Assembly: GCA_963709505.1 (NCBI GenBank)
Contig: CAVPXC010000010.1
Coordinates: 1-64,000 of the forward strand
Length of the DNA: 64,000 nucleotides
Direction: 5' to 3'
Source of the DNA: an uncultured Chloroflexia bacterium
GTDB lineage: Bacteria > Chloroflexota > Anaerolineae > JAAEKA01
Of the stretch, positions 26,685-64,000 are shown piece by piece; within the stretch, counting starts at the first letter, position 1, and every line of letters begins with the position of its first letter. The translations under genes and the position numbers were made by a program. The notes beneath the pieces were generated by a model. The model was not told where the DNA came from, did no database searches, and saw only the letters and a list, made by a program, of their open reading frames with translations.

Positions 26685-28194
26685 CACCCCACCAATCAAG
26701 CCGCCGGGACGGGGGCGAGACCTGTTCTTTGGCGATGAACCGGAAGTTATGGACGTCGATGCAGCCAGTACGGCGGCTGACGACGCTGTGCCAGCCCCTG
26801 AAGCGACGATGGAAAATGCCAATGCCGGCGGTGGCACGGCAGTCGTCGAGGAGGCGACAACTGCCGGCGAGACCACCACCGAGGTTACTGCGCTGATCGA
26901 AGAGCCGCAACCTTCGCCGGAGACTCCAGTGACGACGGTGGACGCACTTCCCGTCGTCGAGGCGGAAAGCCAGCCACTCAAGACCACGGCGCCTCCTCCT
27001 CCCCCGCCGCCGGCTCCGGTCGCCAAGCCGTCGAGCAACAACGGGGGATGTCTGCAAAGCTTGGCCGCCATGCTGCTGGGCGCATTGATCGGCGTGGGGT
27101 TGACGCTTGCGATTCTGTTTGCGCTCAACCAGGACCTTCGCTTTGCACCACGCACCACCGTGGAGGATGCGCAGCGCACGATCATAGCCCTGGGCACTGA
27201 CGCGGACGCGTTGAAGACCAACGTGACCGGTCTGCAAGGCGATCTGTCCACCCTCAACGATAGCGCAGGGCAGCTGCAAGACAGCGCCGCAGCGTTGCAG
27301 GATGAAGTGTCCAAGCAAGGCCAGGCGCAGTTGGCCCAGGGAGCAGCGCTGGATCAGTTGTCTGGCGCCGCGAGCGCGATGGGCGCGCAGATCACGGAGC
27401 TGCAAGCCGAGACTCAAGCATTGGCGGGACTTAAGGACCAAGTACAGGAAACGCAGGACCAGGTAGCCGGCCTGGAGACGACCGTTGGCTCAGTTCAAGA
27501 AGTCCTGGGAGTCGTTGCCAGCGAGGTGAGCACACTGACCGTGCGCGTGGACGATCTAGCGCTCAGTGCGCAGCGTTCCGATCGTTTCCTGCTGGGCATG
27601 CGTGACCTGATGGCCCTGGTATACACGGATGCGATCTCTCAGACCGCTGCGATCACCGGCACGCCACCGCTGACGGTGACGACGTTTGTTACAGCCACCG
27701 CTACGCCGACGGCCACCTTCGCCGTTACGCCGACCGCAGCGATCACGGCTACGCCTACAGTCACCGCCGCGGAGGCGATCACAGGCACTTCCGTGGTCAC
27801 GAGCACGGCTACCGTAACTAGCACGCCCACGGTGACGGCGACAGTACCCGTTACCGTTCCCACCGCACCTCCAACGCCCTCCGGCACGGGTAGCATCCAA
27901 GGTTCGGCCTATCTTGACGGCAACCGCGATGGGCGGCGAAATCCCGTGACGGAAGCGGGCCTGGCCAACGTGCGTCTGACGCTGTACGATCGGAACCGGG
28001 TAGAGTTGGCGCGGACTGTGACCGATGCGCGCGGAAACTTCAGCTTTGGCGACCTGCCGCCGGGGATTTACGTGGTAGTAGAGACTGATCCGGCCGGCTA
28101 CGTGTCCACCTCGCCCAACATCTTGACCGTGGTGCTCCGCAGCACCGCCACGGCGAGCGGTATAGACTTTGGGGACTACAAGGCGTCCCAGTAG
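26665..28194 (+). CDS. membrane-anchored coiled-coil protein with C-terminal Cna-B/SdrD-B-like domain; putative ParA partner
   Basis: Overlaps the parA stop by 20 nt. Acidic disordered N-terminus with a GRGRDLFFG motif, poly-Pro stretch, one TM helix, Q/A-rich coiled-coil, T/P-rich linker, C-terminal prealbumin-like B-type domain. Confidence 0.6.
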   Translation: MTLDQSSTPPIKPPGRGRDLFFGDEPEVMDVDAASTAADDAVPAPEATMENANAGGGTAVVEEATTAGETTTEVTALIEEPQPSPETPVTTVDALPVVEAESQPLKTTAPPPPPPPAPVAKPSSNNGGCLQSLAAMLLGALIGVGLTLAILFALNQDLRFAPRTTVEDAQRTIIALGTDADALKTNVTGLQGDLSTLNDSAGQLQDSAAALQDEVSKQGQAQLAQGAALDQLSGAASAMGAQITELQAETQALAGLKDQVQETQDQVAGLETTVGSVQEVLGVVASEVSTLTVRVDDLALSAQRSDRFLLGMRDLMALVYTDAISQTAAITGTPPLTVTTFVTATATPTATFAVTPTAAITATPTVTAAEAITGTSVVTSTATVTSTPTVTATVPVTVPTAPPTPSGTGSIQGSAYLDGNRDGRRNPVTEAGLANVRLTLYDRNRVELARTVTDARGNFSFGDLPPGIYVVVETDPAGYVSTSPNILTVVLRSTATASGIDFGDYKASQ

Positions 28195-28245
28195 AGATCG
28201 AGCGAGCGCGGCGAATCAGTCCGCGCAGGGCTCCGATGTCGCAGC

Positions 28246-28362
28246 TCAGAAGTAAGTGGCAAGTGGCAGGTGGCAGGTTGCAAGTTACAGGCTGCAAGTC
28301 TTCTGCAACCTGCCACTTGCCACTTGCCACTTGTCACCTGCCACCTGCCACCTGCCACTAAT
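28246..28362. repeat. hexamer-based palindromic repeat block (AGTGGC/AGGTGGC units, inverted halves)
   Basis: Read directly; related blocks at 39497-39580 and 50886-51000. Confidence 0.75.
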
Positions 28363-28418
28363 ACCCCTGCGAAGGCGAGTAATTGATACCAACCTCGCCA
28401 TCTGAAAGTTTGGTTGCA

Positions 28419-28447
28419 TTTGACAGGTAGATGCTTCTGTGTTACCA
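28419..28447 (+). promoter_or_regulatory. candidate promoter TTGACA-17-TACCAT for the aro leader transcript
   Basis: Consensus -35, 17-nt spacer, 4/6 -10, ~30 nt upstream of the leader RBS AAGGAAG. Confidence 0.4.
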
Positions 28448-28476
28448 TTCACACGCTGTCAAAGGAAGTGGTGGCA

Positions 28477-28653
28477 ATGAGCACCGACCCTATGAATCAT
28501 TACTCACTTTCAACACTTGCATCGGCCCCCGCCGAGAGCGTTCGCTTTGGCTTGCATCCGCGCCTGACTGAGTCCTGGCGCGGTTTCTATTTTTATTACT
28601 CTTTTGCGGGCCAACACGTCGCGCTCCACGCCTGGGCTGAGGTGGCACTTTGA
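28477..28653 (+). CDS. aromatic-amino-acid attenuator leader peptide (58 aa, contains W-R-G-F-Y-F-Y-Y-S-F)
   Basis: Strong RBS, aromatic codon cluster at ~28576-28605, stop at 28651. Followed by alternative antiterminator (28621-28631 pairs with 28685-28695) and terminator structures, and then the aro/phe operon. Confidence 0.6.
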   Translation: MSTDPMNHYSLSTLASAPAESVRFGLHPRLTESWRGFYFYYSFAGQHVALHAWAEVAL

Positions 28654-28683
28654 CGACCTAGACCACCCAACCGTGTCCGATAA

Positions 28684-28712
28684 AGCGTGGAGCGCATAGC
28701 CCACGCTTTTTT
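28684..28712 (+). terminator. attenuator terminator hairpin with a T6 run
   Basis: AGCGTGG-AGCGCATAG-CCACGCT followed by TTTTTTGTT; its 5' arm is complementary over 11 bp to 28621-28631. Confidence 0.65.
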
Positions 28713-28724
28713 GTTGCTGAAAGG

Positions 28725-28830
28725 TGATCGGTAATCAGTATTCGGTGATCGGTAATCAGGGTTGGCAGTTGCTGTTTACTACTCGTCAAATTCGAAATCA
28801 CCGATCACCGATCACCGATCACCGATCACA
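28725..28830. repeat. GATCACC/GGTAATCA tandem repeat block with inverted halves
   Basis: ggtgatcggtaatcag x2 ... atcaccgatcaccgatcaccgatcaccgatcac. Confidence 0.7.
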
Positions 28831-28845
28831 ATTCCCGGAGATTCT

Positions 28846-30163
28846 ATGCCCACTCGAGGCGTGCGCGGCGCGACGACTGTCGACGAGAATACGTCCGAAG
28901 CCATTCTCAAGGAGACCCGGCGTCTGTTGGCGCTGTTGATTCATTTCAATGGCATCCAACCAGAGGATGTTGCCAGCCTGATTTTTAGTACCACTCGCGA
29001 CCTGACGGCCGAGTATCCGGCCTTGGCTGCGCGCCAGCTGGGCTGGCTGGATACGGCCTTGCTCTGCGGCCACGAGATGGATGTGCCGGGTGGGCTGCCG
29101 CGTTGCATTCGCGTGCTGATCAATTGGAACACCGACACGAAGCCCCACGACATTGTCCACGTCTATCTGCGCGGCGCGCGCAACCTTCGGCCCGATAAGG
29201 CTGACCTGCCGCTCGCCCCGGTGGACGATTTGGAAGGCTGGATTCAGCAACAAGTCGATCATTGGCAGGACCAGAAGTCCGCCCGGAAGGAGAAGCGCAT
29301 GAAGATTGTCGCATTCCAAGGCGAACATGGCGCCTACTCGGAGCAAGCTTTGCGCCAACACTTCGGCCAGGAGGTCGGCACGCTGCCGTGTCATGCCTTC
29401 GAGGGCATCTTCGCCGCAATCGAGTTCTGGCGAGGCCGACTACGGCGTGCTGCCGGTTGAGAATTCCTCCGCCGGCTCCATCAACCGGGCGTTCGATTTG
29501 CTGTTAGACCATGATTTGCGCGTGTGGGGTGAGATTCTGTTGCGAGTCCGGCACAATTTGCTGGCGCTGCCGGGCACGACATTGGATCAGATCCACAGCG
29601 TCCGCTCCCACCCGCAGGCGTTGGCGCAGTGCGAGCGTTGGTTGAGCCAGCGCAACTTGAAGGCGGTGACTTGGTACGACACGGCCGGCAGCGCCAAGGA
29701 ACTGGCGGCCGCGCCGGAGCCCGGTGTGGCCGCCATCGCCAGCAGCCTGGCAGCCGAGACCTACGGCTTGGAGATTGTGGCCGCGGGCATCGAGGACTTG
29801 TCGTGGAACTACACCCGTTTCTTTGTCATCGGTCGCGGTGATGCACCGGTTAGCGCCAAGGCAAAGACCTCGCTGGTCTTTGCGGTTAGCCACGACCCTG
29901 GCTCGCTCTATCACTGTTTGGGCGAGTTCGCCACCCGCGGCATCAACCTGACAAAGATCGAAAGCCGGCCCCGTCGCAACCGGCCGTGGCACTATGTGTT
30001 CTACCTCGACTTTGCTGGTCACTGGCAGGATCCTACGTGCCAACAAGCGCTGGTTGGCCTGCTCGCCCGAGCCGCATTTGTCAAGCTACTGGGTTCCTAT
30101 CCGGCGGCGGAGATACCGGCGATGAACGGCGAAGGCGGGCAGAGCGAGTTGTTGCAAATATAG
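28846..30163 (+). CDS. pheA: AroH-type chorismate mutase fused to prephenate dehydratase (PDT+ACT), with an apparent +1 frameshift near 29425
   Basis: N-terminal [20 protein letters not shown] = AroH class; no stop before the PDT N-terminus ([17 protein letters not shown]). PDT continues in another frame ([14 protein letters not shown] ...) after a 1-nt insertion (gagTtctgg); C-terminal ACT domain. Confidence 0.7.
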
Positions 30164-30292
30164 CGCTGAATGCTGAATGCTGAATGAAGAAAATCTGGGC
30201 TGCCCCATCCGCCTTGCTGCCCGCTCCGCCCTCCGCACTCATCACTCCGCATTCATCACTCATCATTTTCCACTCTCCACTTTCAACAAAGA
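30160..30292. repeat. GCTGAATG x3 followed by a CACTC/CATCACT-type repeat (GTGGAG family, reverse orientation)
   Basis: Read directly between pheA and the first DAHP synthase. Confidence 0.65.
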
Positions 30293-30301
30293 GGTGCAAA
30301 A

Positions 30302-31316
30302 ATGATCGTCGTCATGAAACAAGGCGCCACCGCCTCCGAGATCGGCGCTGTAATCGCCAAGGTCCAACAGCTGGGACTGACTGCCCATCCGATCTATGGC
30401 GAATCCAGCACGGTGATCGCCATCGTCGGCGAGGCGATTACCGTCCATCCGGATTCTTTCCAGGTGTTGCCAGGAGTTCGAGGTTGTCAACCGCATTGCC
30501 AAGCCGTTCAAGCTGGCCAGCCGAATCTCCAAGCCGGAAGACACGATCGTCAGTCTCAACGGCGTCTCGATTGGCGGCAAGAAGCTGGTGGTGATGGCCG
30601 GGCCGTGCAGTGTCGAGAGCCGCAGCCAGATCTTGGAAACGGCATGGGCCGTCAAGGAGGCCGGTGCGACGATCCTGCGCGGCGGCGCGTTCAAGCCGCG
30701 CACGTCGCCCTATTCCTTTCAGGGCATGGGGTTGAAGGGGCTGGAGCTTCTAGCCGAAGCGCGCCAAGAGACAGGGCTGTATATCGTCACCGAGGTGATG
30801 ACGCCCGATGCGGTGTCCATGGTCAGCCAGTACGCCGATATCCTGCAGATCGGGGCGCGTAACATGCAGAACTATGGCCTGCTCAACGCCGTCGGCCGGA
30901 CTCAGCGTCCCGTGTTGCTCAAACGCGGTATGATGAGCACAATCGAGGAGCTGCTGATGTCGGCCGAGTACATTATGTCCAACGGCAACTATCGGGTGAT
31001 CTTATGCGAGCGCGGTATCCGTACCTTTGAGCCGATGACCCGCAACACGTTTGACCTGAACGCGGTGCCGGTGCTCAAGCAGCTGAGCCATTTGCCCGTT
31101 GTCGCGGACCCGAGCCATGGCACTGGGCGCTACGACCTGGTGGCTCCGATGGCAAAGGCCGCTATCGCCTGCGGCGCGGATGGTCTTATCATCGAGGTGC
31201 ACCCGCATCCCGAGGACGCGGTCTCCGACGGCGCGCAAAGCCTCAAGCCGGAGAAATTCGCCAGGTTGATGCGAGATTTGAAACCATTGGCGGAGGCGGT
31301 GGGGCGAGAAGTTTAG
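30302..31316 (+). CDS. aroG: DAHP synthase (class I-beta, KDO8PS-like) with N-terminal ferredoxin-like/ACT regulatory domain, paralog 1, apparent +1 frameshift near 30478
   Basis: N-terminal [25 protein letters not shown] matches the regulatory domain of paralog 2. The catalytic domain (AGPCSVES ... [11 protein letters not shown]) resumes in-frame if one base (gttCgagg) is removed. Confidence 0.7.
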
Positions 31317-31323
31317 ACGGAGA

Positions 31324-31430
31324 GAATTGTCAATTGGGAATTGGGAATTGTCAATGGTTAATGGCGGATCCGGATTCCGGAAATTCGCCATTGACAATTC
31401 TCAATTCCCAATTGACAATTCGAACGATTT
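31324..31430. repeat. ~105-bp palindromic element built from CAATTG/GAATTG heptamer repeats centred on GGATCC
   Basis: Arms gaattgtcaattgggaattgggaattgtcaatgg and its near-perfect inverse. Confidence 0.75.
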
Positions 31431-31458: not shown

Positions 31459-32472
31459 ATGATCATAGTCATGAAAGCAGGCGCAAGTGCCAGGGAAATC
31501 GGGCATGTCACCAGTCGTATCGACGAGATGGGCTTCCAGGTGCATTTGAGTAAAGGCACCGAGCGCACCATCATCGGCGTCATTGGCGATGAGCGGCCGT
31601 TGGACCCTGCGATGTTCGAGGTAATGGAGGGCGTCGAGAAGACGGTTTCTATTTTGCCGCCCTACAAGCTGGCTAGCCGCGAATTTCGGCGGGAGAATAC
31701 AGTGATTCCTGTTGGCGGCACGAGTGTCGGTGGCGAGCGGCTGGCCGTGATCGCCGGTCCGTGCAGCGTCGAGAGCCGCGGCCAATTGCTGGAAATCGCC
31801 CATGCCGTGAAAGAGGCCGGCGCTACGATGCTGCGCGGTGGCGCGTACAAGCCGCGCACATCGCCGTACGCGTTCCAAGGCATGGGGGTGCCAGGCCTGG
31901 AGCTGCTCGTCGAGGCGAGAGAAGCGACCGGTCTCCCCATCGTAACCGAAGTGATGGCGCCGGACAAGGTGGAGCTGGTGGCGGAATACGCCGACGTGCT
32001 GCAGATCGGCGCGCGGAACATGCAGAACTACCCGCTGCTGCAGGCCGCGGGCCGGGTTCAACGACCGGTGTTGCTCAAGCGCGGTATGATGAGCACGATC
32101 GAAGAGCTGCTCATGTCCGCCGAATACATCCTGGCCGCAGGCAACTACAACGTCATGTTGTGCGAGCGTGGCATCCGAACCTTCGAGACGTACACCCGCA
32201 ACACCACCGATATCAATGCCATCCCGGCGCTCAAGCATCTCAGCCATTTACCAGTGATCGGCGATCCCAGCCATGGCACCGGCAAATGGGCGCTGGTGGC
32301 GCCGGTCGCCAGGGCGCTGGTGGCAGCCGGCGTCGACGGCTTGATGATCGAGGTGCACCACGACCCCGAACACGCCCTGTCCGACGGCGCACAGAGCCTC
32401 AAGCCGGAGCGTTTTGCCGCGCTGATCCGGGAGATCCGGATGATTGCTGAGGCGGTGGGGCGGTCTGTGTAG
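31459..32472 (+). CDS. aroG: DAHP synthase (class I-beta) with N-terminal regulatory domain, paralog 2 (intact)
   Basis: 337 aa, continuous regulatory plus catalytic domains ([39 protein letters not shown]). Confidence 0.85.
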
Positions 32473-32556
32473 TGGAAGGTGGAGAGTGGAGAGTGGAGGG
32501 TGAAGAGTGGAGAGAGTCTGGAGTTCCCTCCACTCTCCACTCTCCACTTTCCACTA
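32471..32556. repeat. GTGGAGAGTGGAG-type repeat, palindromic arrangement
   Basis: gtggaaggtggagagtggagagtggagggtgaagagtggag ... ctccactctccactctccactttccac. Confidence 0.75.
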
Positions 32557-32562
32557 CGAATC

Positions 32563-33466
32563 ATGACACAATCTTCCTACGAGAAAGAACTGGTCGACTG
32601 CACAATCGCCATCGCCGGCCTGGGCCTGATGGGTGGGTCGCTGGGTCTGGCGCTGCGAGGCCGCGTTGCACGGGTGATCGGCATCGCGCGGCGGGCCGAG
32701 ACGATAGATCAGGCGTTGGTTGCAGGTGCGATCGATAAAGGCTGCTCGACACTGGCCGAGGGCATTGTCGGAGGCCGATATCATCGTGCTGGCGACACCT
32801 GTGAGCGTGATCCTGGCGCAGATCGAGGAGATCGGCCGGCTTGCGCGAGATGGCGGTGTGCGGGACGGCGTCGTACTGATCGATCTGGGCAGCACCAAGG
32901 AGCGCATCTGCAACGCGCTCGACGGCTTACCGGCGGCGATCCAGCCCGTGGGCAGCCATCCGATGTGCGGCAAAGAGACGTCGGGGCTGGACGTGGCGGA
33001 GGCCGGGCTGTATTGCGGCGCTCCGTTCGTGCTTAGCCCGCTGCCACGGACGGCGCGGCAGACGATGACGCTTGCCACGCATCTTGCTTTAGCCGTAGGC
33101 GCCTGTCCTTTCGAGCTCGACCCCGTCCGTCACGATCGCCTGGCGGCGGGGATCAGTCACGTGCCGTATCTCGTTGCACTGGCGGTGTTTGCTGCGGCCA
33201 ACGACCTGGCCCAAGAGGACGCGATGGCCTGGCAGCTGGCGGCCGGCGGTTTTCGGTCCACCACTCGTCTGGCCGGCAGCGACGACAAAATGATGGCCGA
33301 CATCCTGCTAACCAATCGCGATGCGGTATTGGCACAGCTAGACCGGTTGCAGGCAGAGCTGGGGCAGCTAGCGGCGCTAATCAGCACCAGCGACGAGGCG
33401 CGGCTGCGCGATCTCGCCGGAACTGTGCGTCAGCAACGAGCCCTGTTTTTGGAGCAGTATGGGTGA
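32563..33466 (+). CDS. tyrA: prephenate dehydrogenase, apparent +1 frameshift near 32765
   Basis: N-terminal Rossmann GxGxxG (IAGLGLMGGSLGLAL), then a frame change (gagGgcatt) into the TyrA catalytic/dimerisation part ending at 33466. Confidence 0.7.
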
Positions 33467-33560
33467 TGAAGGGTGGAGGGTGGAAAGTGGAGGGTGGAGA
33501 GGCGAAGATTCTCTGCACTCTGCACTCTCCACTCTCCACTCTGCACCCTCCACCCTCGAC
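33463..33560. repeat. GTGGAG-family palindromic repeat
   Basis: gggtggagggtggaaagtggagggtggagagg ... ctctccactctccactctgcaccctccaccc. Confidence 0.75.
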
Positions 33561-33578
33561 ATCCGAGTAGAGTATCCC

Positions 33579-34883
33579 ATGAACCTCCTAATCCATCCTA
33601 TCCAAGAGCTCTACGGCACTCTGACCGTTCCCGGCGACAAATCAATCTCGCATCGAGCCGTCATGTTTGCGTCCTTGGCTGAGGGGCAGAGCCAAGTGCG
33701 TAATTTCCTGCCTGGCGGCGATTGCCGCGCCACGCTTGGAGTCATGCGAGCGCTGGGTGTGCCGATCACGGAAGTCGACTCAACCACCTTGCAGATCGAC
33801 GGCCTGGGCCTGGCCGGCCTACAAGAGCCGGCCAGGCCGTTGGATTGCGTCAACTCCGGCACGACGATGCGGTTGATCGCGGGCTTGTTGGCGGGCCAGG
33901 ATTTCTTTAGTGTGCTGAACGGCAGCGAACAGCTGACTAAGCGACCCATGGGCCGCATCGTCGAGCCGTTGCGCCGGATGGGTGCGTCGATCCACGGCCG
34001 GCAGGGCGGCCGGCTGGCGCCGCTGGCGATCCAGGGCACGCTGTTGCAGGGGGTCGACTACACACTGCCCGTGGCCAGTGCGCAGGTCAAGTCGGCCGTG
34101 CTGCTGGCTGGGCTGTACTGCAACGGGCTGGCTATCGTGCGCGAGCCAGGCCCGGCGCGCGATCACACCGAGCGCATGCTGGCTGCGATGGGCGCCCCGA
34201 TCCGGGTGTTGGGTTCGGTGGTGATCAGCGAACGGCCCAACCGTCCGCTGCGCCCGATGGACCTGACCGTGCCGGGCGACATGTCGTCGTCGGCCTTTTT
34301 GCTGGCGGCCGGGCTGCTGGCGCCGCAAAGCTTGCTCACCATCGCCGGCGTGGGGGTCAATCCCACGCGCACCGGCTTGCTCGACGTGTTTTGCCAGATG
34401 GGCGCAGACCTGCGCCTGGAAAACGAGCGCAAGGAGGCAGGCGAACCGGTGGCCGACATCGTCGTGCAGCATAGCGATCTACGTGGAGTTGAGCTAGGAG
34501 GCGCTTTGATCCCGCGCATCATCGACGAGCTGCCTGTGCTGGCGGTCGTAGCGACTCAGGCGCACGGGAGGACGATCGTGCGTGATGCCGCCGAGCTGCG
34601 CGTCAAGGAGACCGACCGGATTGCGACGATAGCGACCGAGCTGCGCAAGATGGGCGCGCACATCGAGGAGCGCCCGGACGGCTTTGTCGTGGAGGGTCCG
34701 ACGCAATTGCAGAGTGCGCCGGTCTGGAGCCATGGCGATCATCGATTAGCGATGGCGCTATCGGTCGCGGCGCTGATTGCCGCTGGCCCGGTGCTGGTCG
34801 AGGACGTTGAGTGCATCGGCGACAGCTACCCCGGCTTCGAGGCGGCGCTGAACCGGTTAGGTGTGGAAATGGTAGAGGCCTAG
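33579..34883 (+). CDS. aroA: 3-phosphoshikimate 1-carboxyvinyltransferase (EPSP synthase)
   Basis: MNLLIHPIQELYGTLTVPGDKSISHRAVMFASLAEG ... full-length EPSPS. Confidence 0.85.
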   Translation: MNLLIHPIQELYGTLTVPGDKSISHRAVMFASLAEGQSQVRNFLPGGDCRATLGVMRALGVPITEVDSTTLQIDGLGLAGLQEPARPLDCVNSGTTMRLIAGLLAGQDFFSVLNGSEQLTKRPMGRIVEPLRRMGASIHGRQGGRLAPLAIQGTLLQGVDYTLPVASAQVKSAVLLAGLYCNGLAIVREPGPARDHTERMLAAMGAPIRVLGSVVISERPNRPLRPMDLTVPGDMSSSAFLLAAGLLAPQSLLTIAGVGVNPTRTGLLDVFCQMGADLRLENERKEAGEPVADIVVQHSDLRGVELGGALIPRIIDELPVLAVVATQAHGRTIVRDAAELRVKETDRIATIATELRKMGAHIEERPDGFVVEGPTQLQSAPVWSHGDHRLAMALSVAALIAAGPVLVEDVECIGDSYPGFEAALNRLGVEMVEA

Positions 34884-34885
34884 AT

Positions 34886-34965
34886 TGGACCTTTCTTCCG
34901 AGAAAGGTTTAATCGCGCTCGATATTGATTGGACCTTTCATCCGAGAAAGGTCCAATCTGATCCA
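34886..34965. repeat. two copies of the palindrome TTGGACCTTTCNTCCGAGAAAGGTCCAAT
   Basis: Also present at 13886-13912. Confidence 0.7.
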
Positions 34966-34995
34966 CGGAACGCGTCATCCAGGAGTAATGCTTCA

Positions 34996-35844
34996 GTGAC
35001 GATTCTCGTCGGTCTCATCGGTTGGCCGCTCGGACACAGCGTCAGCCCCGCGATGCACAATGCCGCATTCCAGACGCTGGGGCTGGACGGCCGCTATGAG
35101 GCGCTCCCTGTGCCGCCGGAGCAGGTGGGCGACCTTGTTCGTAGCCTACATGCCCGCGGTTTTCGCGGCGTCAATGTCACGATTCCGTACAAACAAGCCG
35201 TCATGCCGCTAATGGACGAGCTGAGCGAGGCCGCGCAGCGCATCGGCGCGGTCAACACGATTGTCGTCGAGCCGGATGGCCGCCTGCGCGGCGACAACAC
35301 GGACTGGTTGGGATTTCTTCATCCCCTGGACGAACGCGGCTTTGACCTGGCCGATAAGTCCGTTCTGCTGCTCGGCGCCGGCGGCGCGGCTCGTGCTGTG
35401 GTCTATGCGCTGCTGCAGCGCAATATCGCGCGTCTCACCATCTGGAACCGTAGTCTGGACCGCGCGGAAGCGCTTGCTAGGCACGCTGCGACTCTGGACT
35501 CTTTATTGACAATTGACAATTGTGAATTGTCAATTGTCAATTCCGACCTGATCGTCAATTCCACCCCTATCGGCATGTGGCCGCACATCAACGAGTCGCC
35601 GTGGCCGGCCGATTTGTCCTTTCCATCCCGCGCGCTGGTCTACGACCTGGTGTACCGGCCGGAGCAGACGCAGTTCTTACGTCAGGCTGAGGCCGCCGGT
35701 TGCTCGGTGCAGGGAGGGATGGAGATGTTGGTCGTGCAGGGAGCGGCCGCGTTCAGGCTTTGGACGGGACATTATCCGTCGTTGGGCGTGATGATGACGA
35801 CAGCCCGCTACGTAGTGGCAGGTACAGAGGAGGATGATTCATAA
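34996..35844 (+). CDS. aroE: shikimate dehydrogenase
   Basis: GTG start after AGGAG; VGLIGWPLGHSVSP and NVTIPYK motifs. Carries an in-frame CAATTG-repeat insertion at 35505-35546. Confidence 0.75.
   Translation: MTILVGLIGWPLGHSVSPAMHNAAFQTLGLDGRYEALPVPPEQVGDLVRSLHARGFRGVNVTIPYKQAVMPLMDELSEAAQRIGAVNTIVVEPDGRLRGDNTDWLGFLHPLDERGFDLADKSVLLLGAGGAARAVVYALLQRNIARLTIWNRSLDRAEALARHAATLDSLLTIDNCELSIVNSDLIVNSTPIGMWPHINESPWPADLSFPSRALVYDLVYRPEQTQFLRQAEAAGCSVQGGMEMLVVQGAAAFRLWTGHYPSLGVMMTTARYVVAGTEEDDS
35505..35546. repeat. CAATTG heptamer repeat inserted in-frame inside aroE (encodes LTIDNCELSIVNS)
   Basis: ttgacaattgacaattgtgaattgtcaattgtcaattcc within the CDS at a position where homologues have a short loop. 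Confidence 0.7.
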
Positions 35845-35944
35845 TCTACTTATTGCATTCCCGCGCTACCAAACGCCAGAACAACCGCTCAATGAAGAGA
35901 AACAGCGAGACCATCCAGAAGTACATCGCTGCCCAATCCAAACT

Positions 35945-36960
35945 ATGATCACCACGCAGACGCTTCCCTACCGGGGCAGTAAAGCCCTGGCCGATGAACT
36001 GAATAAGGAAAGCGCCAGGCACTACAACGCAACGCTTTCCAACCATTGGCGCACCTTCCGCAAGAAGGGCGTGTGGCTCTCCGAAAAGTCGGCCTACCGC
36101 TGGGAGGACTACCAGTCGGATGGCACGATCCTACACGCGCACAGTCGGGATGCGGCCCAGCAGGCGTTCTATCGGTCGTGCAAGACGGCGAGAACCCTCA
36201 AACGGAACGGGAACACGGCAGCGCGCTATCCCAAGTATCGCCGGGGCTTTAGAACCACGATCTGGAAGAATACCGGCATCCGTAAGAGCGGCAGCACCCT
36301 GCTGCTGGCTCGCGCGGGGCCTGGCTCCGATCACGGTGGCCTTCCCTGCCGCTTGGGAGACCTGTCGGGTCTTGGAAGCCCGGCTTGTGTTCGACAAGAA
36401 GTCCTACAAGTACACCTGGCACATGGTGCTCGAAGACGGTCTGGTCCCGCCAGTCGCACCGGGAGACCGGGTGCTGGCGGTGGACATGGGCGAGATCCAT
36501 CCGTCGGTCATAGCGGACACCGAGCAAGCCCTGGTGCTCTCCTGCCGAGCGCTGAGGGCTTGTAAGCAGTACGGGAACAAGCGCCGGTCGGAACTCGCTT
36601 CTTTGCGGGATCGGAAGAAGCGCGGGTCGGCCAACCGGAAGCGCATCCAGAAACGCATGAACCGCTTCAAGGCCCAACAGGAACGCCGCGAAAGGGACAT
36701 CTTGCACAAAGTCTCGCGCGCCGTGGTCGATCATGCAGTGGCCCGGCGTGCAGGCAAAATCGTCATCGGCGACGTGCGGGACGTGGCCGATGGCGTCAAC
36801 CTGGGACACCGAACGAACCAGAAGGTGTCTGGCTGGTCGCATGGGCGGCTGCGCCAGTACATCAGGTACAAGGCCGAGCATGTCGGGATCGAGGTCGTGC
36901 TGCAAGAACCATTCAAGACGCTGCCATCAGGCAGCGCGTGGAGCAGCTTGTTCGTTCCAT
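35945..36960 (+). pseudogene. tnpB: IS605/IS200-family TnpB (OrfB, RuvC-like) remnant inserted between aroE and aroC
   Basis: Split across two frames (shift near 36310). RuvC-I (VLAVDMGE) and RuvC-II (IVIGDVRDVADGVNLGHRTNQKVSGWSHGRLRQYIRYKAEHVGIEVV) are present; the C-terminal zinc finger/RuvC-III is missing. No tnpA or recognisable IS ends. Confidence 0.65.
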
Positions 36961-36975
36961 CCTGGAGGGTGTATG

Positions 36976-37320
36976 AAAAACCAGGCCGCTATTCGAGAAC
37001 GCTACCTTCGCGATCCTCTGCCGGTGCGTCTTGGTGGATTGGCTGCGAATCTGGCCCGAGTTAAGTCTATTTCCAACCACCCAAAGCATAGCGCGATAGT
37101 CGAAGGTCTTATCGATGAAAGCAAATACTTTGTCGAGTGGGCGGCTCCCGATGCAGAAGTAGATCGTCAAGCGGAGTTGGTCGCAATGCAGGTTCAACTG
37201 GCTCTCTGGCAATTGAATTGGTCAAAGATTTGGCCAGACCCGGCGGCGCGAGCTTTAGTGGCTGATCAGGCGAAAGAATGGTCGGATCAGGTACTTGCCA
37301 TGTCTGGTCTGCTGGACTAG
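36976..37320 (+). CDS. hypothetical helical protein (114 aa)
   Basis: MKNQAAIRERYLRDPLPVRLGGLAANLARV... no family recognised; 23 nt upstream of aroC. Confidence 0.35.
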   Translation, partial: KNQAAIRERYLRDPLPVRLGGLAANLARVKSISNHPKHSAIVEGLIDESKYFVEWAAPDAEVDRQAELVAMQVQLALWQLNWSKIWPDPAARALVADQAKEWSDQVLAMSGLLD

Positions 37321-37342: not shown

Positions 37343-38525
37343 ATGATGCTTCGCTTCCTAACCGCAGGTGAATCCCACGGCCCCGCGCTGACGGCCATCC
37401 TCGAAGGGATGCCGGCCGGGCTGCCGCTATCGGCGGGCGACCTCGCCAACGACCTCGCTCGACGCCAGACCTCCTACGGCGCGGGCGGGCGGATGAAGAT
37501 CGAACAGGACGGGGCGCGCATCCTGGCCGGCGTGATGGCCGGCCAGACCACGGGCGCGCCCATCGCCTTGCTGATCGAGAACAAGGACTACGCCAAGTGG
37601 CGCGACAAGGAGATCGAGCCGTTGACCACGCCGCGTCCGGGCCATGCCGATCTGACCGGCGCGGTCAAGTACGGCTATCGCGACCTCAGGTTAGCTTTGG
37701 AACGGGCCAGCGCACGCGAGACGGCGGCGCGCGTGGCGGTGGGCTCGGTCTGCCGGGCGCTGCTGGCGCAGTTTGGCGTTCGGATCGGCAGCTATGTGAC
37801 GGCGATCGGCGGTGTAGAGGCGGATCAGGCGCACCTTGACGCGCTGTCATTCGCGGATCGCTTTGCTCTCGCCGAGGGAAACGACCTGCGCTGTCCCGAT
37901 TTGGAGGTGCTCGAGGCTTTACGCAAGCGGGTATGGGACTGTATGCAAGCCAAGGACACCGTGGGTGGCGTGTTTGAGGTGGCGGTGCTTGGGCTTCCGC
38001 CCGGTCTTGGCAGCCACGTTCACTTCGATAGGCGACTGGGCGGCCGCCTGCTGGGCGCAATGGGATCGATCCATGCGATCAAGGGTGTCGAAATCGGCCA
38101 CGCGTTTGAGAACGCCGCGAAGTACGGCACTGACGTGCACGACGAGATCTTCGCAGACGAGGATGGCCGTCTGGTGCGCAAGACTAACCGGTCCGGTGGG
38201 CTAGAGGGCGGAATCACCACGGGCGAGCCGTTGATCATCCGTGCGGCGATGAAGCCGATTTCGACAACGCTCAATCCCCTGCGCAGCGTCAACTTGGCGA
38301 CCGGCGAGGCCGAGCCGACGCGTTACGAGCGCAGCGACTTCAATGCGGTGCCGCGCGGGCGTGGTGGCCGAGGCGATGGTGGCGTTTGTCCTGGCCGATG
38401 CCTTGCTGGAGAAGTTGGGCGGCGATAGTCTGGACGAGATGCGTCCCCGGTTCGAAACGTTGCGGCAGGCCCACCTCGATGATTTACCGATGGACAACGT
38501 GTTGTGGCAGTTCGGCTACGAATGA
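37343..38525 (+). CDS. aroC: chorismate synthase, apparent frameshift near 38335
   Basis: Full AroC core. The C-terminal 60 aa ([26 protein letters not shown]...) are in another frame (track ORF 38343-38525). Confidence 0.75.
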
Positions 38526-38580: not shown

Positions 38581-39502
38581 TCAGCGACGAAGTCGTTGGG
38601 CGCGGAGTTGATCCAGGCTGGCGCTGGCCGATTTTCGAACCTTCGCCTTGGGGTCGGACAGGGCAGCCTCGAGGGCTTTCATGGCGTCGGCCCCGCCCAG
38701 GCGTCCCAGCGCCTGCGCGGCCGCCTCGCGCACCATGGCAGAATCGTCGCTCGCGAGTTCGCTTGGCGATCTCCGGAACCGCCCGTCGATCTCCCAGCTC
38801 CGCCAGGGCCAGCAACGCTGCGCTACGTGCCTGTCCCTGCCGATGGGTAAGTGCATCTAGCAGGGGCGCTAGGCCGGCAGGCCCACCAAAACGTCCCAAC
38901 CAATGGGCCGCGCGGGCGGCATCTGCAGGGTCATTGCCGTAGAGCCGCTCGATCCATGCGCTGACGTCGAGATCGATGTCGGCTCCGAAACGCACGGCGT
39001 CCTTGTCGACCTCCGCAAAACCGGCGTAGATGTCGGCGAAGGCCGGATCGCCAGGGGTTTTCTGTTCAGATTGGCCCCGGTCAGTGCCTTCGGGATGCTC
39101 TGCCAGAGCCGAACGAGGATGGGCCGCAGGCCGCGTCAGCGTGAGTGCAAACTGTGTTGCCGAGCGCACTTGGCCACCGGCGGCCCGCACCAATCCGGCC
39201 AGCCCGCGGTCATTGGTGACGACCGTGATCTGCGTGGGGGTCTCGCTCTTCTCCACCATCCGGACGATCACCTGATCCGCCTGGACGCCGGGTGGTGCGA
39301 AGCGCACGGTCACGCCGCCGCCCGAGAGATTCCACAAAGGCGCGGGGCCAGGACCGCTGTCAAAGACCACCGTTACCTGTCGTCGGCCGTCAGCGCAATA
39401 CATGCGCAGCCGCAACACCAGCTGATGTTCGTCGTCAGCCTGAGCCAAGTCGATGTCAGGCATTGCGCCGATGAGGTTGTGGCCGTCGATGAGGAGGGGC
39501 AT
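38581..39502 (-). CDS. NYN-domain (YacP-like PIN RNase fold) protein fused to C-terminal HEAT repeats, apparent frameshift near 38860
   Basis: N-terminal MPLLIDGHNLIG NYN signature; HEAT repeats continue in ORF 38581-38856. Confidence 0.55.
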
Positions 39503-39580
39503 GGGAAGTGGCAGGTGGCAAGTGGCAGAGTTGCAGGTGTCGGAGTGTCAAGGTGTCAGGTGTCGGAGTTCTGAGGTAAT
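39497..39580. repeat. hexamer repeat block (GGCAGGTGGCAAGTGGCAG ... GGTGTCGGAG units)
   Basis: Same family as 28246-28362. Confidence 0.65.
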
Positions 39581-62900: not shown

Positions 62901-64000
62901 CCTCCCCCTCCGAGGGGGAGGGTTGGGGAGGGGGTTGGGGAAGCGGCTCAATCACTTCCTTCCCCTTAACCTTGCGCACCACCAGCGGCTCGCCCGCCAC
63001 GCGCACCTGGTATTCCAGCAGCCCCTCGTAGATGCTGCCCAGGTGGCGGATTTCCAGGTCGCGGTAGTCCACAACCTCGCGCGTGCCGGTTTTGGGATCG
63101 CGCGTGCGCGCCAGCAGGTCGATCGCCTTGCGCAGGTGCAGGTCGCCGACGCGGTGCTGCTCCAGGAAGGGATGGTTGGCCGGCTTGAACAGCCCGCCGT
63201 CGTAGGCCGGCACGCCCAGGTAGGGATCGCCGCCGTCGATCACGCGCCACAGCTCGGCCAGGCGCTGCCACAGGCTGGACATGCTGGGCGCGGCCGGTTG
63301 GCCGCTGTCGATCTCCTGGGCGATGCGCCGCTTGAGCGCCTGCAAGCTGTAGCTCTCGCGGTAGGTCGAGTTCTCCAGCACCGGCAACAGGTCGCGGTCC
63401 TCGGCGTAGAGGATGAACAGCAGCCGGTAGAGCACGATCAGGCTGTTGTCGTGGATGGCCCGCAGCGTGGTCTCGTCCGGCGTCAGGCCGTTGCCGGGGA
63501 AGTCGAGGAAGCCCTGGGCCAGGGCAGCCAACGCCTCGTAGACCTGGTCTTTCAGCCCGGCGCTGATGCCTTGCTGGTAGGCCAGGCTCTCGGCCAGCAC
63601 CAAATCCAGCCAGGCTGGCGCGCCATGGGCTGCGCTGTCGGGGAGGAAGGCCTCGCGGCGGAAGAAGAGCCAGAAATACTTGAACGCCTCGGCGTCGCCG
63701 GCCTCGATCAGCGCGGGCAGATCGACCTCGTAGTAGACGTCCAGCTTCTTGGAGGAGTCCTTGTGGTAAAGCTGCCACAGCCGGCCGTTGGTCAGCACGC
63801 CCCAGGCCAGCCCCGAATGGCGGATGTAGAAGTCGATCTGCAAGGCCGGGTTGGCGTGGAGGGTCTTGCTGCTATCGGCCGGGCCGCTGCGGTCCAGGGG
63901 CCGGTTCCACGCCTTGGCGTCGGCCACGGCCAGGGCGGCGGCCAGATCAGCCTCCGCGGCCGGGCGGTGCAGCGTCTGGATGGCGGTGCGCGTCGCCTCG
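59922..64000 (-). pseudogene. type IIG restriction-modification / PglX-like N6-adenine methyltransferase, disrupted (multiple frames), 5' end beyond window
   Basis: N-terminal/helical part (62833-64000+, open past the window edge). MTase core with GSYYTP and NPPY motifs (61730-62836). Low-GC TRD-like segment in broken frames (60792-61729; ...LLALLNSQLLEWRF...STNNHVSVNELR). C-terminal domain ending in the RLYGLTEEEIAVVEG hallmark (59922-60791). Confidence 0.6.
60792..61729 (-). other. low-GC (~48 % vs ~65 %) target-recognition-domain segment of the MTase gene
   Basis: Visible composition drop; ORF fragments 60782-61060, 61172-61405 and 61507-61710 lie in different frames. Confidence 0.6.

Follow-up and report, generated by a model that had tools for sequence, protein, structure and literature searches.

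Genes and features of the aroH leader region

The window analysed here, i.e. the first 64,000 nucleotides (nt) of contig CAVPXC010000010.1 from an uncultured Chloroflexia bacterium (assembly GCA_963709505.1), contains an operon for the synthesis of aromatic amino acids that starts with an aroH-pheA fusion (Table 1). Between the end of a 509-codon open reading frame (ORF) at position 28194 and the ATG of this chorismate mutase gene lies a self-contained leader region, which is the subject of the present analysis. Judged from its sequence and from RNA folding models, it very probably acts as a ribosome-mediated (leader-peptide) transcription attenuator that senses charged tRNA-Phe and tRNA-Tyr and sets the read-through into the operon of aroH-pheA, DAHP synthase, tyrA, aroA and aroE. 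We do not rate this assignment even higher because its basis is computational throughout and because of the difficulties with the termination branch of the proposed switch.

A promoter scan of positions 27900-29200 returned a sigma-70-like element as the sole promoter-like site. It is followed by a Shine-Dalgarno-like motif and by the leader ORF, whose product of 58 amino acids reads MSTDPMNHYSLSTLASAPAESVRFGLHPRLTESWRGFYFYYSFAGQHVALHAWAEVAL. Within this ORF, seven out of ten consecutive codons are aromatic, namely three for Phe, three for Tyr and one for Trp. The small ORF, its ribosome-binding site and the aromatic run had already been pointed out in a preliminary description made from the sequence letters, and we found all of them as described. 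Searching the six reading frames of the whole window for runs of at least six aromatic among eight residues yielded two such runs, the leader one included. The second run, on the minus strand around position 63684, was rejected as a leader, being situated inside an ORF of 364 amino acids.

Downstream of the aromatic codons, an inverted-repeat search retrieved the arms 28621-28631 and 28685-28695 (11 nt, 100% complementary, 53 nt between them), which are called segments 2 and 3 in the following. The 11-nt segment that the preliminary description had matched to the 5' arm of a terminator was thus found independently. The same search returned the arms 28682-28690 and 28701-28709 (9 nt, 100% complementary), the latter representing segment 4. 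They form the stem of an intrinsic terminator situated 134 nt upstream of aroH. This hairpin and its T6 run are present as previously proposed, but the stem starts at 28682 and not at 28684; likewise, the start of aroH had been placed at 28847 and is corrected here to the ATG at 28846. A simple terminator scan gave no match at the hairpin 28682-28712, because the loop measures 10 nt when arms of 9 base pairs are assumed and the scan accepted 8 nt at maximum. The leader ORF, the cognate codon cluster, the intrinsic terminator and a mutually exclusive antiterminator, i.e. four sequence elements characteristic of this class of attenuators, are all present.

Table 1. Features of the leader region, the downstream operon and the repeat hairpins in the window.
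Feature	Position	Strand	Details
Promoter, sigma-70-like	28420-28448	+	-35 TTGACA at 28420-28425, 17-nt spacer with extended TG, -10 TACCAT at 28443-28448; promoter scan
Shine-Dalgarno-like AGGAAG	28463-28468	+	8 nt 5' of the leader ATG; read from the sequence
Leader peptide ORF	28477-28653	+	58 codons plus TGA; ATG at 28477, TGA at 28651-28653
Segment 1	28536-28556	+	pairs with 28605-28626 when the naked full-length leader adopts its minimum-energy fold; the 1:2 helix encloses the regulatory codons
Hairpin P, GC-rich	28558-28583	+	CCGCGCC (28558-28564) / GGCGCGG (28577-28583); -16.6 kcal/mol
Regulatory codon run	28576-28605	+	TGG CGC GGT TTC TAT TTT TAT TAC TCT TTT = W-R-G-F-Y-F-Y-Y-S-F
Segment 2, antiterminator 5' arm	28621-28631	+	GCGCTCCACGC
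Leader stop codon TGA	28651-28653	+	19 nt 3' of segment 2, 31 nt 5' of segment 3
Segment 3, antiterminator 3' arm	28685-28695	+	GCGTGGAGCGC; overlaps the 5' arm and loop of the terminator
Intrinsic terminator	28682-28712	+	stem AAAGCGTGG / CCACGCTTT, -16.5 kcal/mol; T6 run at 28707-28712
Heptamer-repeat inverted hairpin	28719-28834	+	GGTGATC / ATCACCG arrays; 5' untranslated region, between attenuator and aroH ribosome-binding site
aroH-pheA fusion, first regulated gene	28846-30163	+	chorismate mutase type I (CM_1), prephenate dehydratase (PDT), ACT; Pfam; ribosome-binding site GGAG at 28836-28839
DAHP synthase 1	30302-31316	+	frameshifted; ferredoxin-like N-domain; Pfam
DAHP synthase 2	31459-32472	+	intact; ferredoxin-like N-domain; Pfam
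tyrA, prephenate dehydrogenase	about 32560-33466	+	frameshifted; Pfam
aroA, EPSP synthase	33459-34883	+	intact; Pfam
aroE, shikimate dehydrogenase	34885-35844	+	intact; Pfam
IS605-family OrfB/TnpB (Cas12f-like TNB domain)	35834-37320	+	between aroE and aroC; tnpB frame split, 35834-37064
aroC, chorismate synthase	3' end about 38300-38428	+	after tnpB; reading frame split
Further heptamer hairpins	28254-28359, 30164-30267, 31324-31421, 32471-32555, 33470-33557, 35505-35572, 39502-39569		

Conservation of the leader among relatives

Related loci were collected in a genome scan with the N-terminus of the AroH-PDT protein, which resulted in 80 loci. The best matches came from metagenome-assembled genomes of Caldilineales/Anaerolineae, with 75-83% amino acid identity, which places the window in Chloroflexota. 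A promoter, a short ORF rich in Phe and Tyr and a hairpin were found upstream of aroH in 59 of these 80 loci, and an aromatic-rich short ORF precedes aroH in each of the 24 closest loci and in most other Chloroflexota loci, too. For comparison, the background of windows with at least six aromatic among eight residues amounts to 0.007 per 650 nt in the related loci outside the aroH upstream regions. All but one of the leader-bearing loci are labelled as Chloroflexota (Anaerolineae, Caldilineales, Ardenticatenaceae, Chloroflexaceae and Ca. Leptofilum); the odd one, L046, is labelled Ca. Sulfomarinibacteraceae and has almost the same leader as the Chloroflexota loci L047 and L052. The loci of Planctomycetota, Desulfobacterales, Holophagales and Dehalococcoidia among the 80 showed no convincing leader. 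Aromatic-rich windows in L032, L037 and L042 were taken as spurious on inspection.

The layout of the leader is conserved among the relatives. Where the upstream sequence was long enough, nearly all loci with a leader show a TTGAC-N-TAnnnT promoter whose distance to an in-frame ATG is fixed, and the relatives' promoter, TTGACA-N17-TGnTAnnAT, takes a constant position 5' of the leader ORF. Close relatives carry GAGGAA, AAGGGT or GAAGGT at the spot of the ribosome-binding site. The ORF is in frame from ATG to stop and comprises 47-59 codons in the nearer relatives and 20-37 in the more distant Chloroflexota. Peptide conservation is limited to the aromatic run and to residues overlapping the RNA helices (PRL, WRG, ALHA), and the N-terminal half of the leader peptide is not conserved. 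The spacing is almost invariable in the close clade: in 14 of 15 sequences, segment 2 begins 18 nt after the first base of the last Phe codon, and in 14 of 15 the stop codon follows segment 2 at a distance of 19 nt. Of the 59 leader-bearing loci, 50 combine the hairpin with a T-run, which begins 51-78 nt downstream of the leader stop codon (51-62 nt in 47 loci). Moreover, a DNA profile built from 29 relatives, with the window excluded, had a single match in the window (28546-28713, E=2.1e-28). In a metagenome scan with an 18-letter degenerate motif (TGGYGCGGNTTYTATTTT, 17 specified positions), the matches listed (80 loci) occurred almost all by chance, and L114 was the only true member among them.

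Two lineages deviate from this scheme. The nine exceptions to the terminator are Chloroflexaceae-type loci, which have the hairpin without a T-run. Loci of this type (L053, L055, L057-L060, L063, L066) carry a Phe/Tyr leader, e.g. MAQRVHSFYRYFYYFTGPHMAWSLRTV, and a strong GC hairpin, and the aromatic codons themselves have a complementary segment upstream. Such leaders may use a different read-out, for example translational control or factor-dependent termination. Loci of the Ardenticatenaceae/Ca. Leptofilum type have a Phe/Tyr leader ORF of 20-37 codons, the ATG of which lies 7-10 nt after the -10 box (L030, L041, L046-L049, L051, L052, L054, L056, L061, L062, L064, L065, L067-L069, L071, L077). 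Because of this short distance, the leader is probably translated from a leaderless mRNA in these loci.

Covariation of terminator and antiterminator

Two alignments were used to analyse the helices, A1 with 14 close sequences and A2 with 30 sequences. In A1, the positions of the terminator are paired in 98.4% and those of the antiterminator in 99.4%, and the RNAalifold consensus consists of the antiterminator plus hairpin P. Two close relatives, L002 and L003, display a three-way compensatory change, in which C to U in segment 2, G to A in segment 3 and C to U in segment 4 keep both helices intact. In A2, the antiterminator helix is paired in 87.6%, compared to 26-54% when the partner columns are slid, and five of its pairs with 17 cells are compensatory. 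The terminator helix is paired in 95.2% with three compensatory pairs and 15 cells, which exceeds the slid controls as well. For both helices, none of 500 shuffles reached the observed values. In more distant clades the terminator differs (AAGACGCGGC...GCCGCGTCTT) and is matched by a GC-rich segment within the ORF; there, the complementarity between ORF and terminator is statistically weaker. Taken together, the 59 of 80 loci, the covariation of both helices and the RNAalifold consensus support the earlier reading of the locus as a pheA/trp-type attenuator. Furthermore, the orthologous leaders that were to be expected 5' of aroH in related genomes do exist, with the aromatic run and the alternative pairings conserved.

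Hairpin P and codon choice

A second hairpin, called hairpin P, is located within the leader ORF. It is as stable as the terminator, and UUCUAUUUUUAUUAC, which represents the Phe/Tyr codons, follows it directly. Among the 30 relatives, 29 have a hairpin of -8 kcal/mol or lower that ends within 6 nt of the first Phe/Tyr codon, with stems that vary by clade (CCGCGCC/GGCGCGG, ACCCACGC/GCGUGGGU, GGACCUGCGC/GCGUGGGUCC). Codon choice in the leaders is shifted to the U-rich minor forms, with TTT at 85% and TAT at 55%, compared to 29% and 33% in the long ORFs of the window. By analogy with the 1:2 hairpin in trp, hairpin P probably makes the RNA polymerase pause and thereby keeps it in step with the ribosome. 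Alternatively, it might represent a first terminator that is relieved by translation.

Folding of the leader RNA

RNA folding found both of the mutually exclusive structures that had been postulated for this locus, the 2:3 and the 3:4 pairing, and showed them to be close in energy. The naked full-length leader of the window folds into the 1:2 helix (28536-28556 with 28605-28626) plus the terminator at -94.2 kcal/mol, and the forced antiterminator fold has -89.8 kcal/mol. Among the relatives, the minimum-energy fold of the full-length leader includes the terminator in 27 of 30 cases, and 23 of the 30 form the antiterminator when the transcript is cut just before segment 4. The 1:2 helix known from the window is out of register in A1 and was hence scored sequence by sequence; in the minimum-energy fold of the full-length leader, 22 of the 30 relatives have segment 2 paired with a stretch located 5' of the aromatic run, which corresponds to the classical 1:2 pairing.

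The influence of the ribosome was approached with several models. Folding with a masked footprint permits pairing across the ribosome, and therefore a downstream-only model was added, which folds only the RNA 3' of the ribosome. In this model, P sites 28591-28603 give the antiterminator as the most favourable structure, and from P site 28606 through the stop the probability (P) of the terminator is always 0.96-0.97. Hence, the last Phe codon (28603) is the final stall position that leaves segment 2 free, and the downstream-only model frees and blocks segment 2 as the attenuator needs it, whereas the models with cross-ribosome pairing or with the ribosome parked at the stop leave the antiterminator possible.

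Proposed mechanism and its difficulties

From the parts, their alternative pairings, conservation, covariation and spacing, we infer the following course of pausing, stalling and termination in the cell. Transcription would start about 7 nt after the -10 box (28448), and a ribosome would load at the ATG at 28477. RNA polymerase would probably pause at hairpin P, with the Phe/Tyr codons serving as its U-tract, until the ribosome arrives and opens the hairpin, so that the two machineries would be synchronised. Under shortage of Phe or Tyr, the ribosome is expected to stall on the codons 28585-28605, with its front, about 15 nt past the P site, remaining short of 28621. The stalled ribosome would cut segment 2 off from its upstream partner (28536-28541), so that segment 2 could pair with segment 3 once the latter has emerged; the terminator stem would be prevented and the polymerase would read into aroH. 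With ample Phe and Tyr, the ribosome should cross segment 2 and reach the stop codon at 28651 in the middle of the antiterminator loop, masking segment 2 in transit (P site at or beyond 28606). Segments 3 and 4 (28701-28709) would then pair and transcription would end at the T6 run (28707-28712). Re-formation of the 1:2 helix behind the ribosome may contribute to termination. Without any ribosome, 1:2 plus terminator is the most stable fold of the complete leader.

Nevertheless, a number of points weigh against this scheme. First, stalls at the early codons do not give the expected outcome: if cross-ribosome pairing is allowed, stalls with the P site at 28576-28594 favour the terminator by 1.5-4.4 kcal/mol, and even in the downstream-only model the terminator probability is about 0.7 for P sites 28573-28588. 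Thus, the thermodynamic switch is clean for the last aromatic codons only. Second, a transcript cut before segment 4 makes the antiterminator without a ribosome and, in the pure footprint model, also with a ribosome at the stop codon. The termination branch must therefore rest on sterics, kinetics or the 1:2 pairing. Third, once the stop codon has entered the A site, the footprint of the ribosome should extend over roughly 28635-28663, which leaves segment 2 uncovered; of the earlier proposal that a terminating ribosome masks segment 2, only the masking in transit can be kept. Fourth, the 1:2 helix covers just 6 nt of segment 2 (28621-28626) in the window, and its position is not in register across the relatives. 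Fifth, several of the downstream genes appear to be frameshifted in the window. Finally, the mechanism presupposes a coupling of transcription and translation in Chloroflexota, and such coupling is under debate outside Proteobacteria.

The regulated operon and alternative explanations

Directly after the leader region, aroH-pheA, two DAHP synthase genes, tyrA, aroA, aroE and aroC follow in the order given by the preliminary description of an aro supercluster, which has to be amended by apparent frameshifts and by a tnpB gene inserted before aroC. The close relatives (L001-L024) show a syntenic arrangement of leader, aroH(-pheA), DAHP synthase gene(s) and tyrA to aroA/aroE, and the core synteny of leader, aroH and DAHP synthase is kept across the phylum. 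In the window, aroH-pheA has an apparent +1 frameshift near 29427, which results from a 1-nt insertion relative to three relatives and lies outside a homopolymer. Other apparent frameshifts were noticed in DAHP synthase 1 (30480-30590), in tyrA (around 32560-32720), at the 3' end of aroC and in tnpB. These frameshifts could represent assembly indels or gene decay.

If decay were the cause, the architecture would be real in the lineage but a relic in this genome, where the operon is falling apart, an insertion sequence element has entered and the regulatory role has been lost. The insertion in aroH-pheA, situated outside a homopolymer, the split reading frames of DAHP synthase 1, tyrA, aroC and tnpB, and the IS605-type OrfB between aroE and aroC would all fit such a loss. 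However, the leader is intact throughout, with promoter, ATG, frame, stop position, both helices and T-run; DAHP synthase 2, aroA and aroE are intact as well, and the transposase is frameshifted, too, a pattern expected of indel-prone sequencing. We therefore regard a relic as unlikely.

Compared to the working leader-peptide attenuator favoured here, another possibility is that the switch is real but set by something other than a translating ribosome, i.e. by uncharged tRNA in a T-box-like manner, by a small molecule acting on a riboswitch or by an RNA-binding protein, and that the ORF is incidental. Generally, T-box or protein control of aromatic amino acid genes is known from other Gram-positive-type lineages, and the default formation of the antiterminator in truncated transcripts resembles some ligand-controlled systems. 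But Rfam, its T-box families included, had no match (whole window at gathering score; 28200-28900 at E up to 10), and such a switch leaves unexplained why a Phe/Tyr run stands in frame with ATG and stop in 59 loci, why the codons are biased, why the 18-nt and 19-nt spacings are fixed and why some lineages have a leaderless ATG 7-10 nt after the -10 box. Hence, we consider control without the ribosome to be very unlikely. Even less credit can be given to the assumption that the ORF encodes a functional aromatic-rich micro-protein with the hairpin as its constitutive terminator and with aroH transcribed from another promoter: 58 codons are long for a leader peptide, the ribosome-binding site is reasonable and the 134-nt gap between terminator and aroH accommodates a large repeat hairpin, but the peptide, varying in length from 20 to 59 amino acids, is unconserved beyond the aromatic run and the helix-overlapping stretches and has no match in Pfam or NCBIfam, covariation links antiterminator and terminator, for which a plain terminator would have no use, the promoter scan detected no promoter-like site at 28712-28846, and the linkage to aroH is kept across classes of Chloroflexota.

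Comparison with known attenuators

The leader-peptide attenuator proposed here follows the four-segment logic of trpL, in which 1:2 plus 3:4 pairing competes with 2:3 pairing, an early hairpin pauses the polymerase until it is freed by the ribosome, and the leader without a ribosome adopts the terminating fold. The folds of the window match this scheme, including the terminating state of the ribosome-free leader. In contrast to trpL, where the regulatory codons are inside segment 1, they are located between segments 1 and 2 in the window; furthermore, the terminating ribosome comes to stand downstream of segment 2, and the overlap between 1:2 helix and antiterminator is 6 nt. With the T-box elements of Gram-positive-type lineages the leader has in common the link to amino acid genes and the competing terminator and antiterminator helices, but there is no T-box match in the window and sensing would proceed via translated codons and not via a specifier loop.

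In E. coli pheL-pheA, the Phe codons of the leader serve to set the chorismate mutase/prephenate dehydratase gene by charged tRNA-Phe (PMC11802643). The window resembles this system in its short upstream ORF with Phe codons, its terminator with an overlapping antiterminator and its chorismate mutase/prephenate dehydratase target, but differs in that no sequence or structure homology to it (Phe_leader in Rfam) was detectable, with no Rfam match at E up to 10. The pheL peptide has about 15 amino acids and its regulatory codons are for Phe alone, whereas the peptide of the window has 58 and Phe and Tyr codons alternate. Further differences are the stop codon, which follows segment 2 in the window and precedes it in pheL, and the extra hairpin with its U-tract abutting the regulatory codons. 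The operon of the window also adds DAHP synthases, tyrA and genes of the common pathway, and it belongs to Chloroflexota instead of Gammaproteobacteria.

The mixed codons find a counterpart in the aroR leader (Phe-Tyr-Phe) upstream of the aroF operon of C. glutamicum, for which ribosome stalling and a response to limitation of Phe, not of Tyr, are given in the short account of Neshat et al. (2014) contained in PMC11802643. As far as that account goes, both systems combine mixed Phe/Tyr codons with a DAHP synthase operon and with ribosome stalling, the latter being proposed for the window. They differ in phylum (Actinobacteria for aroR) and in the number of regulatory codons, three as opposed to 6-10 in the Chloroflexota leaders.

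Novelty and significance

Searches of the catalogues yielded no known family. Rfam gave none at gathering score in the 64-kilobase window, and at E up to 10 no leader or T-box family in 28200-28900, where just weak microRNA-like matches to the flanking repeat hairpins appeared. Pfam and NCBIfam, likewise searched at E up to 10, contain no family for the peptide of the window or the peptides of three relatives. Our literature searches found no description of leader-peptide attenuation in Chloroflexi/Chloroflexota, but they did not cover one broad survey from 2010, so that an earlier description is possible. The family is thus new to Rfam, Pfam and NCBIfam and, within the literature searched, its phylum is new for such leaders, while the principle is old, i.e. 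a textbook mechanism. Overall, we lean somewhat towards the view that the leaders constitute a previously uncatalogued family of leader-peptide attenuators spread across much of Chloroflexota (Anaerolineae, Caldilineales, Ardenticatenaceae, Ca. Leptofilum and Chloroflexaceae).

If this view is correct, the family would be unusual in its design in two respects. The U-rich Phe/Tyr codons would at the same time serve as the U-tract of a conserved GC hairpin within the ORF, which could act as a pause site or as a first checkpoint dependent on translation. Moreover, the leader ORF of some lineages would be leaderless, its ATG following the -10 box after 7-10 nt. The family would also provide sequence-level evidence for functional transcription-translation coupling in Chloroflexota: attenuation needs a ribosome close behind the RNA polymerase, and its conservation therefore argues for coupling in this phylum. 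Such coupling is still debated outside Proteobacteria. In addition, the family would give an account of how the aromatic amino acid pathway is regulated in a poorly studied and mostly uncultured phylum. About 60 examples with covariation and fixed geometry would be at hand for genome annotation pipelines, and in metabolic reconstructions of wastewater and sediment Chloroflexota the aroH/DAHP synthase operon could be marked as responsive to Phe and Tyr.

Repeat hairpins and further aromatic leaders

The 5' untranslated region between attenuator and aroH-pheA contains the heptamer-repeat hairpin 28719-28834. It is absent or different in the relatives, in which the distance from terminator to aroH varies, and it is a passenger outside the conserved attenuator. 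Analogous repeat elements occupy the same spot in L004-L012 and stretch this distance, which spans 79 to 513 nt. In L016-L024, what looks like a small ORF between terminator and aroH was rejected as a separate gene and is read as an in-frame N-terminal extension of AroH, based on inspection of the locus sequence.

Tandem 7-nt repeats in large inverted hairpins also occupy almost every intergenic spacer of the aro operon, and 19 heptamer arrays were counted in the whole window. Each of the hairpins has its own unit, e.g. AAGTGGC/TGCCACT, GGTGATC/ATCACCG or AGTGGAG/CTCCACT. Finally, three metagenome contigs (L116, L124, L131) carry a different aromatic leader peptide (MSINRFFNFTNFYFWCGFYFGPS...) together with terminator-like hairpins directly 5' of a DAHP synthase gene.

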